A stretch of DNA of 64,000 nucleotides from a bacterium (GCA_043815505.1 JBDRIV010000002.1:438943-502942); one strand, 5' to 3'; positions 42,192-54,957 are shown, numbered from the stretch's first letter. Made by a program: numbers and translations. Notes: generated by a model from the sequence alone, not told the origin.

Positions 42192-42836
42192 ATGACAGAA
42201 GAAAACACAACTCCATCCGAAAATGAGCCAAAAGAAGACTCAAAAGATGGAGATAAAAAGAAAAATAACAAAGTTTTAATTATAGTTATAATTTTAGTTG
42301 GTGCTCTAATAATATTAGGATTTGCAGCTTCAGCTATATTTGGTTGGATGGGGAAGAAAGTGGTTGAAAATGTTATAGAAAATACTGCTGAATCAAGTTT
42401 AGGAGAAGGTGCAGATGTTGATATTGATGAAGATGGATATACAATTACCAATAATGGCACAACGGTATCAGGAGATGAGAACAGTTATAGTATGACATCA
42501 GATGACGGATCAATTAAAAGTGGAACAGCAGCAGAACTTCCAAGTGATTGGCCAAGTAACATCCCGGAATACAGTGGATCTGAACTATCTTCTACTACTG
42601 ATATTTCCGGAACCATGTCAGCATATTATGAATCAACAGATAGTGTTAGTGATGTTGCAAGCTATCTTAAAGATAAATTGGAAAAAGCTGGTTATATAAT
42701 TGGTGATACATATACTACCAATGATTCCTATATGTATACATTTTCGGATAATACTTACGATGGTTCATTGAATGTATATTCTTATGAAGATGGAAAAACA
42801 ACTTACGCAATTATTTTAGGACCAAAAACTGAATAA
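42192..42836 (+). CDS. Membrane-anchored Ser/Thr/Asp-rich extracytoplasmic protein, hypothetical
   Basis: Acidic N-terminal tail, one TM (VLIIVIILVGALIILGFAASAIF), S/T/D/Y-rich exodomain. Confidence 0.4.
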   Translation: MTEENTTPSENEPKEDSKDGDKKKNNKVLIIVIILVGALIILGFAASAIFGWMGKKVVENVIENTAESSLGEGADVDIDEDGYTITNNGTTVSGDENSYSMTSDDGSIKSGTAAELPSDWPSNIPEYSGSELSSTTDISGTMSAYYESTDSVSDVASYLKDKLEKAGYIIGDTYTTNDSYMYTFSDNTYDGSLNVYSYEDGKTTYAIILGPKTE

Positions 42837-43324
42837 TGGAAGACGAGAAAAAAAAATTAAGAGTCGGTTGGTTTACGTTTTCTTGTTGTGAAGATTCCAC
42901 GGTTATAATGATCGAAGTCTTAAACGATCATTGGCAAGAATGGAGAAAGCTAATTGATTTTCGCCACGCCCGCGTTTTACAAAGAAAAAACGTTTTAGAT
43001 GAAATGGACGTGGCTTTTGTTGAGGGCGCAATAACATCTGAAGAATATGTAAAGAAAGTAAAGAAGATTAGAGATTTAGCAAAAGTTGTTGTAGCGGTGG
43101 GCGCTTGTGCCGTAACTGGTATGCCTTCTGGACAAAGAAATAATTTTGACGAAAAAACAAAAGCAGAAGTTCAATTTTTAGTAGAGAGGTTTAAACAACT
43201 TGATAGAGTTATGAAAGTTGGAGAAGTAATTAAAGTTGATGCGGAACTTCCTGGATGTCCAATGGACCCTAATCAATTCATAGAGCTTGTAGAAAAAGCC
43301 TTTAAAGATTTTAAAATCAAATAA
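42836..43324 (+). CDS. [NiFe] hydrogenase small subunit, minimal NuoB-like (proximal 4Fe-4S only)
   Basis: Only four Cys, arranged as in NuoB/Oxidored_q6 small subunits: FSCCEDS ... VGACAVTGMP ... LPGCPMDP. No medial or distal cluster ligands. Start overlaps the large-subunit gene boundary. Confidence 0.7.
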   Translation: MEDEKKKLRVGWFTFSCCEDSTVIMIEVLNDHWQEWRKLIDFRHARVLQRKNVLDEMDVAFVEGAITSEEYVKKVKKIRDLAKVVVAVGACAVTGMPSGQRNNFDEKTKAEVQFLVERFKQLDRVMKVGEVIKVDAELPGCPMDPNQFIELVEKAFKDFKIK

Positions 43325-44631
43325 TGCATACATTTGATTTATCACTTGGTGAAATTACAAAAGTTGAAGGCGCTGCTTCGCTAGATTTGAGTGTAAAAGA
43401 CAATAAGGTTACCAGTGTAAAATTTAAAATTGACGAGCATAAAAGATTTTACACACAAGCTATGCGGGGAAAAATGGTTATGGCCCTACCGCAACTGTTG
43501 GCTAGGATTTGTGGAACTTGTTCTAATGCTCATCTTTTATGTAGTATTGAATCTTGTGAAAATGCTTTAGGAATTGAAGTTTCCCAGCAAACAAATATTT
43601 TACGTGATTTAACCATGGATGGACTGATGATTCGAGATCACGCTTTGCATTTGTATTTGTTTTCCATGCCCGATATTTTTGGCAAAGATAATTTTTTAAG
43701 TTTCGATGAAGATGATGAAACGGAACACCAAATGTTGCATGATGCTTTTGAAATAAAAGCCGTTGGAGATGGTTTGGCCAAGTTAGTTTCTGGAAGAAGT
43801 GTCCACGCTATGTTTCCAACAATTGGAGGATTTAACAATGAAGTTAAAAAAGAAGATATTGCTCCAATTATGGAAAAATTAAAAAAAACTCGACCAGCAG
43901 TTTTGCGCTTAATGGAAGTGTTTGCTGAGGCCGATTTTCATTTAGATAGAGAAACGCAGTTCATGGCCATCGTGGGCGATAATGAATTTAATTATTTACG
44001 AGGAAAATTAAAAACTAGTGATGGTATGGAAAAAGATGAAAAGGAATTTAGAGATCATTTGGAACATGTTGTTTTGCCATATTCACAAGCTTCTGGTTAT
44101 AAATATAAAGGAACATCTTTCATGGTTGGTTCTATGGCGAGAATTAATTTAGCCAAAGAATTATTGGAAGATGAAACCAAAAAAGATGCCAAAAAGTATT
44201 TGGACATGTTTCCCACAACCGATATTTTTCAAAACAATTTAGCTCAAGCAATAGAAATATTGAACAGTATTGACCATGCAATTAAAGTATTTGCTACGAC
44301 GGAATTCAAAAAAGAAGATCTCATAAAAGCAGAGCCTCCCAAAGAAGAGACTGTTGGTATTGGCGTGATAGAAGCGCCCCGTGGAACGCTTTATCATAAA
44401 ATAGTTTTGCAACCAGATAATAAAGTAAAAGAAGGTGAAATTATTGTTCCTACTGGTCAAAATCAGATTAATATTGAACAAGATATTAAAACTTTGGTAG
44501 AAAAAAATCTAGACAAGCTAGATAAAGATGGAATGGCCATGGAAATAGAAAAACTTATTCGGGCTTATGATCCTTGTATGAGTTGCGGGTCACATTTTTT
44601 GAAGGTAAATTGGAACGAAGAGAAAATATAA
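43324..44631 (+). CDS. [NiFe] hydrogenase large (catalytic) subunit
   Basis: N-terminal L1 motif RICGTCSNAH and C-terminal L2 motif DPCMSCGSH, the two CxxC pairs ligating Ni-Fe. A short C-terminal extension (FLKVNWNEEKI) follows the conserved His, as expected for a protease-processed precursor. Confidence 0.8.
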   Translation: MHTFDLSLGEITKVEGAASLDLSVKDNKVTSVKFKIDEHKRFYTQAMRGKMVMALPQLLARICGTCSNAHLLCSIESCENALGIEVSQQTNILRDLTMDGLMIRDHALHLYLFSMPDIFGKDNFLSFDEDDETEHQMLHDAFEIKAVGDGLAKLVSGRSVHAMFPTIGGFNNEVKKEDIAPIMEKLKKTRPAVLRLMEVFAEADFHLDRETQFMAIVGDNEFNYLRGKLKTSDGMEKDEKEFRDHLEHVVLPYSQASGYKYKGTSFMVGSMARINLAKELLEDETKKDAKKYLDMFPTTDIFQNNLAQAIEILNSIDHAIKVFATTEFKKEDLIKAEPPKEETVGIGVIEAPRGTLYHKIVLQPDNKVKEGEIIVPTGQNQINIEQDIKTLVEKNLDKLDKDGMAMEIEKLIRAYDPCMSCGSHFLKVNWNEEKI

Positions 44632-44986
44632 GATCAGGTAAAACTTCATCTGCTTCTGAATTTTGGGGCAATCCAAATATCAGAATATGAGAGGGAAGTT
44701 TTTTTAATTTATCTAAAAATAATAATTGACTGTGTACATCCAAATCATGCATGGTTATACTCGGGTTTTTTCTGAACTCTTTAATATCTCTGAATAATTT
44801 AACTTTATCAATTCCTTGAACGGTATCAATTATAACTAAGGGACGAGGAATTGATTCCTCATTTTCAATATAAGAAATTTCAAAAAACTCAAATTCAGGA
44901 AACTCTTTTTGCAGTTTCTTTTTTAATTTTAGTGGCAAATTATCTATGGCCAAATCTTTATTTCCCAGTAACCAAATTTCCATCAA
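44555..44986 (-). CDS. Hydrogenase maturation endopeptidase-like protein (HycI/HybD family, divergent)
   Basis: ~140 aa with LLGNKDLAIDNL (degenerate GxGN...DDG), VIIDTVQG (conserved Asp) and HDLDVH (conserved His). Adjacent and convergent to the large subunit. Confidence 0.45.
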   Translation of the reverse strand: MMEIWLLGNKDLAIDNLPLKLKKKLQKEFPEFEFFEISYIENEESIPRPLVIIDTVQGIDKVKLFRDIKEFRKNPSITMHDLDVHSQLLFLDKLKKLPSHILIFGLPQNSEADEVLPDLIFSLRSNLPSKNVTRNSYKDHKPE

Positions 44987-45741
44987 ATTGTAAGATTAGC
45001 TAACATTATCGATTGGTTGGTAAAAGATTTTAATATTTTATATTGTTCAAGGGAAATTGTATCGCAGGGAGAATCCCAATGAACAGTAATAATTTCACCA
45101 ACTTTTATATTGTCCAACCAACCTTCATCGTTTAAGCGACGTATAATCCTTTTAGGTTTAGTGGCACCAGCTAAAGAGAATTTTCCGTTATGATATTGCA
45201 ATTCATCCAGTCGGGCATAAATATAGGGGCCAGATATCTTTGTTATTTTTCCTGCAGTAATTATACATTTCTTTAAACTATCTAACGATTCATGTATTTT
45301 ATCATCCCCAATTTTATGCCAAATATTTAAAACGTGAAATGAATGATGTAAAAAAACACCCATATGTAGTTTATCTTCAACATATTTAAAATCAGCTCCA
45401 AACTTTGTATTAAAATTTCGCACCTCAGTAAAATACTTGTAAGTTGCTTGTTTGGAGATATTCTTTAGCAGGTCATTTCCTAGCCAATAAGCGGCCACCA
45501 CACGTGGATCATAAGGATCTGCTATATTGTTCTGGCTGGCAATAAACTGCAAATAGGGATGAAGGTTTTTAAATTGAGAAAGAATATTGTTTAAGCCATC
45601 ATCAAAACTCTCGTTTTTTAGATATGCAAAAACCTCAGAATTGGCATCCGGACCACAAAGATGAAGTCGGTTCGGACCAAAAGAGTATCTTGCACACAAA
45701 GATACTCCATCAATTTTATCTTTAGTTAATTTATCTGACAA
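44983..45741 (-). CDS. Conserved hypothetical protein
   Basis: 252 aa, two Cys near the N-terminus (SLCARYSFGPNRLHLCGPD), His-rich central region. No family recognised by eye. Likely co-transcribed with the protease-like gene (4-nt overlap). Confidence 0.35.
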   Translation of the reverse strand: MSDKLTKDKIDGVSLCARYSFGPNRLHLCGPDANSEVFAYLKNESFDDGLNNILSQFKNLHPYLQFIASQNNIADPYDPRVVAAYWLGNDLLKNISKQATYKYFTEVRNFNTKFGADFKYVEDKLHMGVFLHHSFHVLNIWHKIGDDKIHESLDSLKKCIITAGKITKISGPYIYARLDELQYHNGKFSLAGATKPKRIIRRLNDEGWLDNIKVGEIITVHWDSPCDTISLEQYKILKSFTNQSIMLANLTI

Positions 45742-45743
45742 AT

Positions 45744-46664
45744 CTATACTTTAAGTTTTAATTGTTTGGCTTTACTCTTAGAAAGTGATTTAGAAAAATA
45801 CAAATATATTCCTACACCAGCTAGTGTTAGTAGTGTTCCATAAATTAAATTTGTATTAATGTTGTGAGCATCAATAACTGCAATTAAAATGTTTGTAATT
45901 AAAGCGGAAGGGACAAGTAGAGTGGTAACTACTGTGGCGGGAGCTCTTTTTAAGGCAGCATACCAAGTTAAAACATATCCGCTCAAGAAAACAGCTGAAA
46001 TAGTTGTCCATAACCATTGCTGACCAGATAAATTTGAAAACATATACAAATTTCCTTGTTGCCAAACAACAAACAGCAAAACGATTGAGCCTAAAACCAT
46101 ACGACCACCAGTTACTAGTAAGGCTGAAAATTTCTTTAGAACATGTTTGGCGATTACATTTTCAATGGCCCAAAGCATGGTAGCTAGAACAATAAATAAT
46201 TCACCTCGAGAAAATTCAAATCCCGAAAAGCCACCAATAACTAAAGTGCCTGTAACAAGTAATCCCATGCCAGCAATTTGTAAAAAGGTGAGTTTTTCTT
46301 TAAGAAACGGAACGGATAAAATTGCTACCCAAATAAATAAAGTTTTATGAATGAAATTAGCATTAACGGCTGATGATTCCAATAGACCAGTGAAAAAGAG
46401 AATAAAAGGAATACTGCCACCGATAATTCCAATCAAAATTAGTTTTGTCCAATCATGGAGCCGCAAATCCTTAATTTCTCGCCATTTCATAAATAGTAGC
46501 ATCAAACCAATAACAAGCAGGGCGACCACAGAATTTTTTAGAGTTGTAAAAACTATTGGATCTTTAACAATCGTAACAGCATACTTCATGATGAAATTTG
46601 AGAAACCTGAAATGAGAGCTGTTAATAATGCTAAGATAACACCTAATTTATATTTATTTTTCAT
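45744..46664 (-). CDS. EamA/DMT-family transporter (10 TM)
   Basis: Two tandem 5-TM EamA-like halves. Confidence 0.7.
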   Translation of the reverse strand: MKNKYKLGVILALLTALISGFSNFIMKYAVTIVKDPIVFTTLKNSVVALLVIGLMLLFMKWREIKDLRLHDWTKLILIGIIGGSIPFILFFTGLLESSAVNANFIHKTLFIWVAILSVPFLKEKLTFLQIAGMGLLVTGTLVIGGFSGFEFSRGELFIVLATMLWAIENVIAKHVLKKFSALLVTGGRMVLGSIVLLFVVWQQGNLYMFSNLSGQQWLWTTISAVFLSGYVLTWYAALKRAPATVVTTLLVPSALITNILIAVIDAHNINTNLIYGTLLTLAGVGIYLYFSKSLSKSKAKQLKLKV

Positions 46665-46998: not shown

Positions 46999-47370
46999 AT
47001 GCCTGCCAAAATTCTTATAATTGAAGATGAAGCAGATTTGTTAGAAATATATAACAAAAAACTGACTGAATCTAATATGGAGGTGGTAACCGCCAAAGAT
47101 GGAAAAAGCGGTATTGAAATGGCCAATAAAGAGAGGCCAAATCTGATAATTTTGGACCTAATGTTGCCAGAAATGCATGGTTTTGATGTCCTAGCAGAAA
47201 TAAAAAAGGACGATAATTTGAAGGATACGCCAATAATAATTCTAACTAATCTTAATCATTCTTTGGATGAAAAGAAGGGATATAATTTAGGTGTAGCAGA
47301 ATATCTTATAAAAGTACAAACAGACGTTTCCCAATTACCAGAAATTATAAGAAAACATCTTAAAAAATAA
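46999..47370 (+). CDS. Stand-alone response regulator receiver (CheY-like)
   Basis: KILIIEDEADLL...LIILDLMLPEMHGFDVL...PIIILTNL. Asp phospho-acceptor context and conserved Thr/Lys present. No output domain. Confidence 0.8.
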   Translation: MPAKILIIEDEADLLEIYNKKLTESNMEVVTAKDGKSGIEMANKERPNLIILDLMLPEMHGFDVLAEIKKDDNLKDTPIIILTNLNHSLDEKKGYNLGVAEYLIKVQTDVSQLPEIIRKHLKK

Positions 47371-52109: not shown

Positions 52110-53377
52110 TAAATACTATTGAACATATATATGCTCGCGAAATTCTAGATTCTCGTGGTAATCCCACGGTTTGTGTTGATGTTATTTTAGATAACGGAAA
52201 AAAGGGTGTGAGTGCCGTTCCTTCAGGAGCCTCGGCTGGAATTCATGAAGCTTTGGAACTCAGGGATAACAATATGGCTAGATATTTAGGCAAAGGTGTT
52301 AAAAATGCCGTGGAAAACATTAACAATATTATTGCTAGGGAATTAAAAGGAAAAAGTATTTTAGATCAGGAAAATATTGATAATCTACTTATAGATTTAG
52401 ATGGCACCCATCAAAAATCATATTTGGGTGCTAACGCAATTTTAGGTGTTTCCATGGCTTGCATCAGAGCTCATGCTGTGGCTCGGAACATGGAATTGTT
52501 TAAGGTAATAGCTGATATTTATGGTAATAAAAAAGACTATTTTATACCCACCCCTATGGTTAATATAATTAACGGTGGTAAGCATGCAGATACTAACCTA
52601 AATTTTCAAGAGTTTATGGTCGTACCAGCTAGTGATATTGATTACAAAGAACAACTTCGTTTGGTTTCGGAAGTATTTCATACATTAGCCACTGTTATGA
52701 AATTAAAAAAATTAGATACTGATACTGGTAATGAAGGTGGTTATGCTCCAGATGTAAAATCAAATGAACAACCTTTAGAACTTTTATGTGAAACCTTTGA
52801 TCAAATGCAATACGAACCTGGTAAGGATGTTTTTATTGCGATGGATGTGGCTGCTTCAACCTTTTATAATCCGGGAGATAAAAATTACCATTTATCAGTA
52901 GACAATAAGAAATATAGTGTGGAGCAGATGATAAGTTTGTATAAGAAATTTGTCAATAAATATCCCATTGTTTCAATTGAAGATCCTTTAAATGAGGATG
53001 ATTTTTCTGGGTGGGCTAATCTTAGACAAAAGCTGGGTGAGAATATTATGATTGTAGGTGACGATATTTTTGTAACCAATGTAGAGCGTCTAAAACAAGG
53101 GGTAGAAAAAGGAAGTGCTAATTCAGTTATTATAAAACCAAATCAGGTGGGAACAATTACTGAAACATTTAATTGTATTCGTTTTGCTCGTGATAACGGA
53201 ATTACAACTGTAGTTTCTCATCGTTCTGGTGAAACAATTGACGACACCATTGCTGACATTGCAGTTGGTACCGGTTCCGAATTTATAAAAGCAGGATCTT
53301 GTGCGCACGGTGAACGAGTAGCCAAATATAATCGCTTATTATTGATTGAAGAAAAAATAAAGAAAGATGCAGAATAA
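52106..53377 (+). CDS. eno: Enolase
   Basis: IYAREILDSRGNPTV N-terminus. Metal-binding and catalytic motifs (SHRSGETIDDTIADIAVG, IKPNQVGTITE). Confidence 0.9.
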   Translation: MINTIEHIYAREILDSRGNPTVCVDVILDNGKKGVSAVPSGASAGIHEALELRDNNMARYLGKGVKNAVENINNIIARELKGKSILDQENIDNLLIDLDGTHQKSYLGANAILGVSMACIRAHAVARNMELFKVIADIYGNKKDYFIPTPMVNIINGGKHADTNLNFQEFMVVPASDIDYKEQLRLVSEVFHTLATVMKLKKLDTDTGNEGGYAPDVKSNEQPLELLCETFDQMQYEPGKDVFIAMDVAASTFYNPGDKNYHLSVDNKKYSVEQMISLYKKFVNKYPIVSIEDPLNEDDFSGWANLRQKLGENIMIVGDDIFVTNVERLKQGVEKGSANSVIIKPNQVGTITETFNCIRFARDNGITTVVSHRSGETIDDTIADIAVGTGSEFIKAGSCAHGERVAKYNRLLLIEEKIKKDAE

Positions 53378-54957
53378 AGAAAATAAAAAAATTGTTTTAT
53401 TAGTTTCTCTTGACGGTTGGGGAATAGCCCCACCGTCTCGTGGTAATGCCATTGAACTTGCTAAAACTCCCGTTTATGACAGTTTATTAATGGAATTTCC
53501 TCATGCCACTCTACAAGCCAGTGGTGAAAGTGTGGGATTGCCCTGGCAAGAAATGGGAAATTCAGAAGTTGGTCATATGAATATGGGAAGTGGAAGAATT
53601 ATTTATCAGGATTTAGTGAAAATAAATAAAAGTGTTATGAATGGTTCTTTTTTACATAATCCCGCTTTTAGGGAAGCAACAGCTCACGTTAAGAAAAATA
53701 ATTCTGCTTTGCATTTTATGGGCTTAATGAGTCCAGGCGGAGTTCATAGTCACATGAGTCATTTGTTTGCTTTGATTCAAATGGCCAAAAAGGAAAAAAT
53801 TGAAAAAGTTTACATCCACATTTTTGCTGATGGTAGAGATACGCCACCAAAAAGCATTCTCCAATATTTGCCTGAGCTGCAAAAAGCTATAAAAAAAAAA
53901 TAAAACTGGAGAAATTGCGACTGTAATAGGAAGATTTTATGCTTTAGATAGAGATAGAAGATGGGATCGAATAAAAAAAACTTATGATGCCATTGTCCAT
54001 GGTCGTGGTATAACAGCTAAAACTCCAGAAGAGGCAATAAATGAGTCTTACAAAAAGGAAATTGCTGACGAAGAAATTGAACCAACGGTTATTGAAAAAA
54101 AAGGAAAACCGGTTGCGACTTTAAATGATAATGATGCTGTTATATTTTTTGATTATCGTGCAGATCGAGCGAGACAACTTACTAAAGCTATTATTGTACC
54201 TGGATTTAATAAGTTTGAATTAGGTGAACAAAGAAAGAATCTAAAATTTGTAACCATGACAGAATACGATTTGGATTTACCTGTCAGTGTTGCTTTTCCC
54301 AGAGAAGAAGTTAAAAATTCATTGGGAGAAGTTTTAAGTAATAATAGTATGAAACAATTTCGTGTAGCAGAAACTGAAAAATACGCCCACGTTACATTTT
54401 TTTTCAACTGTGGACAAGTTGACCCCTTTCCAGGCGAGGAAAGAGAGCTTGTTTCCTCACCGATGGTAAATCACTATAATGATGTTCCAGAAATGAGCGC
54501 CTTACCAATAACAGATATAACTGTTAAAGCGGTTTTGTCTAAAAAGTACAATTTTATTTTATTAAATTATGCCAACGCAGATATGCTTGGTCACACCGGT
54601 GATATTGACGCCACCATTAAAGGTATAGAAGTTATTGACAATCAGCTAGGAAAATTAAAAGAAGCAATTTTGCAGATTGGTGGAACGATGGTAATTACTG
54701 CTGATCATGGGAATTGCGAAGTAATGCGTAATTCCAAGACTGGAGAAATTGATAAAGAGCATACCGCCAATCCCGTACCTTTAATCCTTGTTGGCAAAGA
54801 AAAATTGAATCCACAATTAAAAGAAAAACCTGATTTAAGTATTTTGGCACCCTACGGAGTACTAGGAGATATCGCTCCTACAATTTTAGAAATTCTCAAT
54901 ATTCCTAAACCCGAAGAAATGACAGGAATAAGTTTATATAAAATATTGAAACAATAA
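53367..54957 (+). pseudogene. gpmI: 2,3-bisphosphoglycerate-independent phosphoglycerate mutase interrupted by a +1 frameshift in an A10 homopolymer
   Basis: Frame A (53367-53903) encodes the iPGM N-terminus (LLVSLDGWGIAPPSRGNAI...SEVGHMNMG). Frame A+1 is open from 53893 to 54957 and encodes the rest (KTGEIATVIGRFYALDRDRRWDR...FNCGQVDPF...ANADMLGHTGD...ADHGN). The frames switch inside AAAAAAAAAA at 53891-53900. Combined length ~530 aa, as expected for iPGM. Confidence 0.75.

Follow-up and report, generated by a model that had tools for sequence, protein, structure and literature searches.

The 64-kb window analysed here (GCA_043815505.1, JBDRIV010000002.1:438943-502942), part of a bacterial contig of ~567 kb, encodes the small subunit (42836..43324, plus strand, 162 aa, Pfam Oxidored_q6) and the large subunit (43324..44631, plus strand, 435 aa, Pfam NiFeSe_Hases) of a [NiFe] hydrogenase; locus coordinates are counted in the window. 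We suggest, on sequence evidence and with a probability of about 60%, that this locus specifies a functional cytoplasmic [NiFe] hydrogenase cut down to its catalytic heterodimer, which would exchange electrons with a 2-oxoacid:ferredoxin oxidoreductase (POR)/ferredoxin system or with a flavoprotein, and whose likeliest role would be H2 evolution in acetate fermentation. Judged by its features, the enzyme is a member of hyd2, a group of hydrogenases from the candidate phyla radiation (CPR) known since 2020, and the locus adds no new kind of system beyond that description. The three open reading frames (ORFs) of 162, 435 and 143 aa singled out in an earlier sequence-only reading of this DNA are all present, the third at 44555..44986 on the minus strand, and the stop codon of the small-subunit gene overlaps the ATG of the large-subunit gene (TAATG), so that the pair is translationally coupled.

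The hydrogenase subunits

The large subunit matched Pfam NiFeSe_Hases with an E value of 2.6e-30 (106 bits, cutoff 25.8) and aligned end to end with the solved alpha subunit of soluble hydrogenase I (SH-I) from Pyrococcus furiosus/Thermococcus kodakarensis (E 2e-56), which was its best match in the PDB. RICGTCSNAH (residues 61-70) fell on RICSFCSAAH of SH-I alpha, and DPCMSCGSH (residues 416-424) on DPCISCSVH, in both cases residue by residue. All four Cys ligands of the Ni-Fe site are present, the Glu of the VEG motif and the Arg of the APRG motif are retained, and the His of the second motif (L2) is followed by an 11-aa C-terminal tail (FLKVNWNEEKI) that appears to be of the kind cut off by a maturation endopeptidase. 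The best NCBIfam models, ShyA (246 bits, cutoff 700) and HydA (218 bits, cutoff 880), scored far under their equivalog cutoffs. The large subunit is predicted to be catalytically complete. The sequence-only reading had taken it for a genuine [NiFe] hydrogenase and not a NuoD relic, and this is borne out by both Cys pairs, the L1 and L2 cysteines being positionally homologous to the Ni-Fe ligands of solved SH-I alpha.

The related sequences were drawn from a scan of one genome per GTDB species, which yielded 80 loci; their ORFs were called and clustered by all-against-all BLASTP, and the clusters were named with Pfam. The clade set consists of the 57 non-redundant loci with a large subunit at least 42% identical to that of the window. 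In this set, the first motif (L1) reads RICGTC in 55 of the 57 sequences, DPCxSCxxH is essentially invariant, and a tail beginning FLKxxW, typically of 7-11 aa, is conserved after L2.

The small subunit, for which a search with Oxidored_q6 had been proposed, matched this family with an E value of 1.2e-21. Its motifs SCCEDS (C17, C18), GACAVTG (C91) and GCPMDP (C141) place these four cysteines on the proximal-cluster columns in an alignment with group-3 small subunits of 250-320 aa, and it has none of the eight Cys columns that belong to the medial and distal clusters. The alignment thus confirms the earlier description of proximal-only ligands with a tandem CC as in NuoB. The best NCBIfam match was the sulfhydrogenase delta subunit HydD (positions 2-148 of 261, E 1.7e-16), and residues 7-149 aligned with residues 12-153 of the solved SH-I delta chain in the PDB. 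When the AlphaFold2 model of the small subunit (predicted local distance difference test, pLDDT, 93) was searched with Foldseek, SH-I delta in the alpha-delta dimer structure ranked first, followed by MvhG, HydS and HoxY. By its alignments and its modelled fold, the protein is a group-3 small subunit of which only the domain with the proximal [4Fe-4S] cluster is left.

The tandem CC motif as in NuoB and the Oxidored_q6 family match would also fit a module of the NuoB/NuoD type, belonging to a complex-I-like or group-4 (Ehr/Mbh) complex and not to a soluble hydrogenase. However, the NuoB models matched the small subunit over fragments only, with E values of at least 1e-5 against 1.7e-16 for HydD, and the Foldseek match to PSST (E 2e-6) was about five orders of magnitude worse than that to SH-I delta (E 2.5e-11). 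The large subunit, moreover, keeps all Ni-Fe cysteines and aligns end to end with SH-I alpha, and no membrane or antiporter-type family was found among the recurrent neighbours of the 57 loci, nor in the window, which was inspected for them by eye with no profile run. We therefore reject this reading on the NCBIfam scores, the SH-I alpha alignment and the Foldseek ranking, and its probability is close to nil; the likening of the small subunit to NuoB or a group-4 subunit was likewise abandoned, HydD being the best NCBIfam match and SH-I delta the best fold match.

A search recovered 1468 small-subunit homologues, and the top 120 were all 157-195 aa long. The first ligand column is occupied by Cys in 96% of the clade small subunits; the second ligand is adjacent (CC) in 77%, mostly from CPR, and lies four residues on (CxxxC) in 21%, from DPANN. 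Canonical group 3 small subunits use CxxC. The large subunit of the window is 100% identical to an NCBI protein (P0001), and the small subunit and the neighbouring DUF6390 protein are likewise 100% identical to NCBI entries from metagenome-assembled genomes (MAGs).

Affiliation with hyd2 and relation to group 3b

Large-subunit identity to the window protein falls sharply from at least 42% within the clade to 33% or less for canonical group 3 sequences, and the clade was separated from the fetched group-3 sequences in 200 of 200 neighbour-joining (NJ) bootstraps, in a crude tree built on a biased sample. The nearest group was 3b, with a mean large-subunit identity of 32.5% against 25% to sequences of 3d type. 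The bipartition uniting the clade with the labelled 3b sequences was not recovered in the NJ tree, so that only identities and model scores speak for its sisterhood to 3b.

Jaffe et al. 2020 (BMC Biol 18:69, PMC7304191) divided the group-3b-related hydrogenases of CPR into hyd1 and hyd2, and described hyd2 as having consistently truncated small subunits (mean 164 aa versus 250), no proximal beta and gamma genes, PF07992 flavoproteins and small Fe-S proteins near a subset of the loci, and a HypC-like family in the gene context. The window hydrogenase shares with hyd2 a 3b-related large subunit, a CPR-rich clade on a long branch and a small subunit of ~164 aa (162 here); nothing essential differs, and we regard it as a further member, the affiliation being judged by these defining features and by shared relatives, not by placement in the authors' tree. 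Its large subunit is 60-68% identical to hundreds of proteins from Patescibacteria (nearest relative, 68%), and Azambacteria RIFCSPHIGHO2_01_FULL_40_24, a genome of the Jaffe et al. set, encodes a large subunit of 63% identity along with a small subunit of 164 aa. On a truncated small subunit in Patescibacteria, literature searches yielded no useful source other than Jaffe et al., and the four-subunit CPR 3b enzymes of the 2024 Alum Rock paper are of another type than hyd2. Of the hydrogenase types in CPR bacteria, that of this clade is probably the most common.

The sequence-only reading had considered an undescribed minimal lineage, and had named as its opposite a placement inside a described group with full accessory subunits encoded elsewhere in the genome. 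The lineage is the hyd2 of Jaffe et al., and the placement half of that alternative therefore holds. Its other half corresponds to a canonical four-subunit group 3b sulfhydrogenase with beta and gamma encoded elsewhere, and the nearest characterised relatives are indeed the alpha and delta subunits of SH-I and SH-II, while the window spans 64 of the ~567 kb of the contig. Nevertheless, none of the 57 related loci has a beta homologue within 10 kb, whereas beta, gamma, delta and alpha stand in one block at every canonical 3b locus of the same scan; the hyd2 loci of Jaffe et al. are reported to lack both genes nearby, and the small subunit lacks the medial and distal clusters, through which delta is connected to beta in SH-I. 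We consider this arrangement improbable. In the window itself, profile hidden Markov models (HMMs) from related loci, run against the six-frame translation of the 64 kb (E of 1 or less), gave no match to beta/gamma or to HoxEFU.

The clade extends beyond CPR to DPANN archaea (Aenigmatarchaeota, Micrarchaeota, Woesearchaeota and Iainarchaeum) and to two Nitrososphaerales MAGs. In the latter (L041, 9472-13562 and 17152-19440; L049, 8323-11657), the same minimal pair of small and large subunits is accompanied by an endopeptidase gene, and L041 also carries HypD, HypE and HypF, and L049 HypE. In a review of ammonia-oxidising archaea from 2023, the only complexes listed are four-subunit 3b and Ehr (PMC10432482). 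The presence in DPANN and Nitrososphaerales, together with a divergent endopeptidase, an operon and fusions of EamA and DUF6390, and the fusions of flavoproteins to small subunits, all detailed below, is not reported in the main text of Jaffe et al.

Candidate electron partners and direction of catalysis

Candidate redox partners recur beside the related hydrogenases. Within 10 kb, a ferredoxin-reductase-type flavoprotein (FdR; Pyr_redox_2 with Reductase_C/Rubredoxin_C) was found in 17 of the 57 loci, a single-cluster ferredoxin (Fer4_13/15) in 16 and a two-subunit POR (alpha/beta) in 11. The flavoprotein gene lies immediately upstream of the small-subunit gene on the same strand in seven loci, and in six of these, as also in L085, ferredoxin, FdR, small and large subunit form a co-directional block. 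POR is directly upstream and divergent in four loci, often with an ADP-forming acetyl-CoA synthetase. In two independent cases the small subunit is itself fused, at its N-terminus, to an NAD(P)H flavoprotein: a 587-aa protein in L087 (12534-14297, minus strand) with an FdR-type Pyr_redox_2 domain, in which the tandem CC reads C-S, and a 502-aa protein in the Aenigmatarchaeota locus L027 (8506-10014, plus strand), which is of thioredoxin-reductase type and keeps the CVSC motif.

With the medial and distal clusters gone, the exposed proximal cluster would exchange electrons directly with a docking partner. The relatives suggest that this partner may be of two kinds, namely a co-transcribed single-cluster ferredoxin with an FdR-type FAD/NAD(P)H flavoprotein, in some cases fused with the small subunit, or a divergently transcribed POR. 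The protein docking at the proximal cluster would be a donor of low potential, either POR or a small ferredoxin, or else a flavoprotein linked to NAD(P)H, and in this organism it would be encoded outside the 64 kb.

The closest precedent is SH-I of P. furiosus (group 3b; PDB 9e1j, 9e15 and 9nez), which provided the best sequence and fold matches for both subunits of the window, although large-subunit identity between canonical 3b loci and the clade averages about 32%. Native SH-I is an alpha-beta-gamma-delta tetramer that uses NADPH, whereas the window has neither beta nor gamma by the HMM search, and the P. furiosus delta subunit, with CxxC and both medial and distal clusters, is ~260 aa long as against 162 aa and CC in the window protein. 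An engineered alpha-delta dimer of SH-I shows high activity; it is unable to use NADPH but receives electrons straight from POR, with no ferredoxin in between (PMC3200332). By analogy, we propose this dimer as a working model for the dimer of the window.

Small subunits that hold only the proximal [4Fe-4S] cluster (179-189 aa) and pass electrons straight to a partner protein are also found in HoxHY (NAD+-reducing, group 3d, PDB 5xf9) and in HydSL of the electron-bifurcating HydABCSL (PDB 7t2r), and HoxY and HydS gave Foldseek TM-scores of 0.76-0.80 with the window small subunit over the full length of their chains. However, the large subunit of these enzymes is only ~25% identical to those of the window clade, and HoxFU(E)/HydABC diaphorase genes always stand alongside HoxHY/HydSL (loci L070-L080), whereas none is present in the window.

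The assignment of a role draws on the metabolic genes of the window. PduL and acetate kinase were confirmed, and triosephosphate isomerase (TPI), glyceraldehyde-3-phosphate dehydrogenase (GAPDH), phosphoglycerate kinase (PGK) and enolase were recognised by eye in the translations; these genes for glycolysis, PduL and acetate kinase lie 5-12 kb downstream of the hydrogenase. Because PduL, acetate kinase and lower glycolysis are encoded in the window, we consider H2 evolution in acetate fermentation to be the likeliest role, in which reductant from sugar fermentation would most likely be released as H2 by an enzyme that is probably reversible.

Several points weigh against our interpretation of the locus. 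No ferredoxin, FdR, POR or HypC/D/E/F gene was recovered in the 64-kb window with the HMMs described above, so that the coupling is projected from the related loci, of which about half likewise have no candidate partner within 10 kb. The P. furiosus dimer is an imperfect precedent, since it keeps all three Fe-S clusters, and the tandem CC departs from the group-3 spacing in a way that puts the potential of the cluster at issue. The gene neighbourhood gives no direction of catalysis. The clade is known from its sequences, and the function of hyd2 was said to remain 'uncertain' by those who described it (PMC7304191). The same HMM search, which also covered Suf proteins and found none (E of 1 or less), agrees with the sequence-only reading that diaphorase, ferredoxin and hyp genes are absent from the window, for the hyp genes as regards hypC-F, HypA and HypB having been looked for by eye only, without a model.

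The dimer might instead work in uptake, oxidising H2, for instance from a host or the community, to reduce a flavoprotein and thereby supply NAD(P)H, reduced ferredoxin, or reduced thioredoxin/disulfides. Group 3b enzymes are described as bidirectional (PMC7304191, PMC10432482), the thioredoxin-reductase-like moiety of the L027 fusion keeps its redox motif, and genes for thioredoxin-reductase-like proteins and thioredoxin lie near the hydrogenases of L085 and L086. Against this stand the fermentative layout, with POR and acetyl-CoA synthetase beside the hydrogenase in several relatives and PduL and acetate kinase in the window, and the terminal reductase genes, of which none was seen in the window; the direction itself cannot be read from sequence. 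We hold uptake to be possible but doubtful.

Should direct coupling of the dimer prove true, be it with POR, a small ferredoxin or a fused flavoprotein, this would be the simplest natural [NiFe] hydrogenase system. It would then be an attractive target for expression and engineering, and would settle the way in which ultra-small fermenters rid themselves of reductant and take part in the H2 cycle of groundwater and sediments.

Putative maturation genes and further gene content

A second operon, on the opposite strand and conserved across the clade, converges on the large-subunit gene and contains, in order of transcription, an EamA/DMT-family permease (45744..46664, minus strand, 306 aa, Pfam EamA E 8e-35), a DUF6390 protein (44983..45741, minus strand, 252 aa) and the 143-aa protein. 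The latter alone matched Pfam HycI below threshold (19.2 bits, cutoff 23; E 1.2e-3). In an alignment of 41 members of its family, residues A3, G8, N9, D15, D54 and H80 are invariant and lie in the motifs GN..D, IIDTV and SxHD; 20 of the 41 members matched HycI with E values of 0.01 or less (best, 6e-8), and no competing family was found. The metal-binding triad of HybD consists of E16, D62 and H93, and we take G8, N9, D15, D54 and H80 to correspond to this triad and to the GN motif. Comparison of the family with the canonical proteases of other loci by hhalign gave a probability of 77% (E 2e-5) with the D and H motifs aligned, and the family profile found among PDB sequences only a weak match to HybD (5ttx, E 0.2). 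We read the protein as a divergent HycI/HybD-type maturation endopeptidase, and the earlier suggestion of an adjoining maturation-protease-like gene gains from the invariant triad and from the HycI matches of half the family. Of the 57 loci, 42 have the gene, which in 31 of them directly follows the large-subunit gene in convergent orientation. In the window it overlaps the 3' end of the large-subunit gene by 77 nt (44555-44631), compared with 8-32 nt for the convergent genes of related loci, the excess here being an unconserved C-terminal tail of the endopeptidase.

The tail and the endopeptidase also bear on whether the dimer could be a sensory or regulatory hydrogenase (group 2b-like) that signals H2, as the sequence-only reading had proposed. 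The minimal architecture, the lack of an obvious redox partner in the window and a stand-alone response regulator gene 2.4 kb away (46999-47370) would be compatible with such a function. Sensors of the HupUV/HoxBC type are not known to possess either a C-terminal tail or an endopeptidase, whereas the large subunit here has a conserved tail and a dedicated endopeptidase. Moreover, no histidine kinase was found in the neighbourhood and none is conserved in the 57 loci, the response regulator gene recurs in only one other fetched locus, and the recurrent or fused neighbours are redox enzymes (ferredoxin, FdR and POR), not signalling proteins. A sensory function is therefore very unlikely.

The DUF6390 protein consists of a Cys/His-rich helical N-domain and a C-terminal domain with the fold of HypC. 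Its C-terminal 95 residues matched HypC (hhalign probability 92%), with C159 on the Cys2 of HypC, and a short DUF6390 relative reached Pfam HupF_HypC above threshold; it took profile-profile comparison, this bridging homologue and structure together to establish the link to HypC. With the C-terminal fragment alone, Pfam did not recover HupF_HypC and phmmer against the PDB returned only noise. Like HypC/HupF/HybG (PF01455; PDB 2z1c and 2ot2), the protein combines an oligonucleotide/oligosaccharide-binding (OB) fold with a C-terminal helix and is encoded beside a hydrogenase. However, the aligned conserved cysteine, the free N-terminal Cys2 in HypC, is internal in DUF6390, where C159 stands behind a 150-aa Cys/His-rich helical domain without any match. 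The invariant residues are C29, H132, H133, H136, C159 and H221. Searches of the literature on DUF6390 and on hyp genes in CPR gave nothing useful beyond Jaffe et al.

DUF6390 or its short relative occurs in 27 of the 57 loci, and in all three loci reached independently from DUF6390 homologues the pair of small and large subunits was next door. EamA is present in 17 of the 57, adjacent to and co-directional with DUF6390 or a DUF6390-like gene in 15 of these 17, and the two are fused in P0305 and P0123. HypC, HypD, HypE and HypF were found within 10 kb in 9, 3, 4 and 3 loci, respectively, and SUF genes for Fe-S assembly in 6-9. Because a stand-alone HypC co-occurs with DUF6390 in several loci, the latter appears to be an extra paralogue and not a replacement of HypC. 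A NicO nickel transporter gene lies beside the operon in L014 (6968-7654); since Hyp genes and NicO are found near some loci, some members of the clade are probably matured by the ordinary Hyp pathway. Other metal-transport neighbours are Nramp (L001/L090) and DsbD_2/cupredoxin proteins with heavy-metal-associated (HMA) domains (L026/L029), and a 1025-aa gene product of L026 with an HMA-like N-terminus, as read by eye, may be a P-type ATPase.

DUF6390 is a candidate hydrogenase-specific chaperone, and we infer that it acts with the endopeptidase in maturation of the large subunit. More tentatively, and with clearly less confidence than we place in the minimal hydrogenase itself, the EamA-DUF6390-endopeptidase operon could be a dedicated, previously unrecognised maturation module, with DUF6390 as a new chaperone of the HypC family. 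Its Cys/His-rich N-domain would then take a metal or cofactor precursor from the fused or adjacent permease, and the module may take over part of the work of canonical Hyp proteins in the smallest genomes. As a corollary of this same tentative scheme, the dimer would be a plug-in module for H2, coupled in different lineages to different donors (POR, ferredoxin/FdR or fused thioredoxin-reductase-like flavoproteins). The link between DUF6390 and EamA offers a handle on maturation of the [NiFe] site in reduced genomes.

In high-GC organisms outside CPR, DUF6390 is also fused to helix-turn-helix (HTH) regulators (P0337, P0338, P0371, P0397, P0447 and L088, 1468-2499), of GntR type by Pfam and XRE-, PadR-, ArsR- and MarR-like by eye. 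The GntR-DUF6390 gene of L088 is directly upstream of an ATP-binding cassette (ABC) importer operon and 8 kb from a [NiFe] small subunit of the long type. Together, these observations suggest that DUF6390 binds a metal or a small ligand.

Two further features of the window were recorded. Upstream of the hydrogenase, a 214-aa protein (42192-42836, plus strand) combines a single N-terminal transmembrane helix with a domain rich in Ser, Thr and Asp; the stop codon of its gene and the ATG of the small-subunit gene overlap, again as TAATG, so that these two are coupled just as the small and large subunits are, and no homologue was found among the other loci. Downstream, cofactor-independent phosphoglycerate mutase is apparently split between two plus-strand ORFs of 178 and 233 aa (53367-53903 and 54256-54957), which are in different frames and separated by ~350 nt without a long ORF. 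A pseudogene, a frameshift or an error of assembly could account for this split, which sits within an otherwise intact TPI-GAPDH-PGK-enolase-PduL-acetate kinase block.

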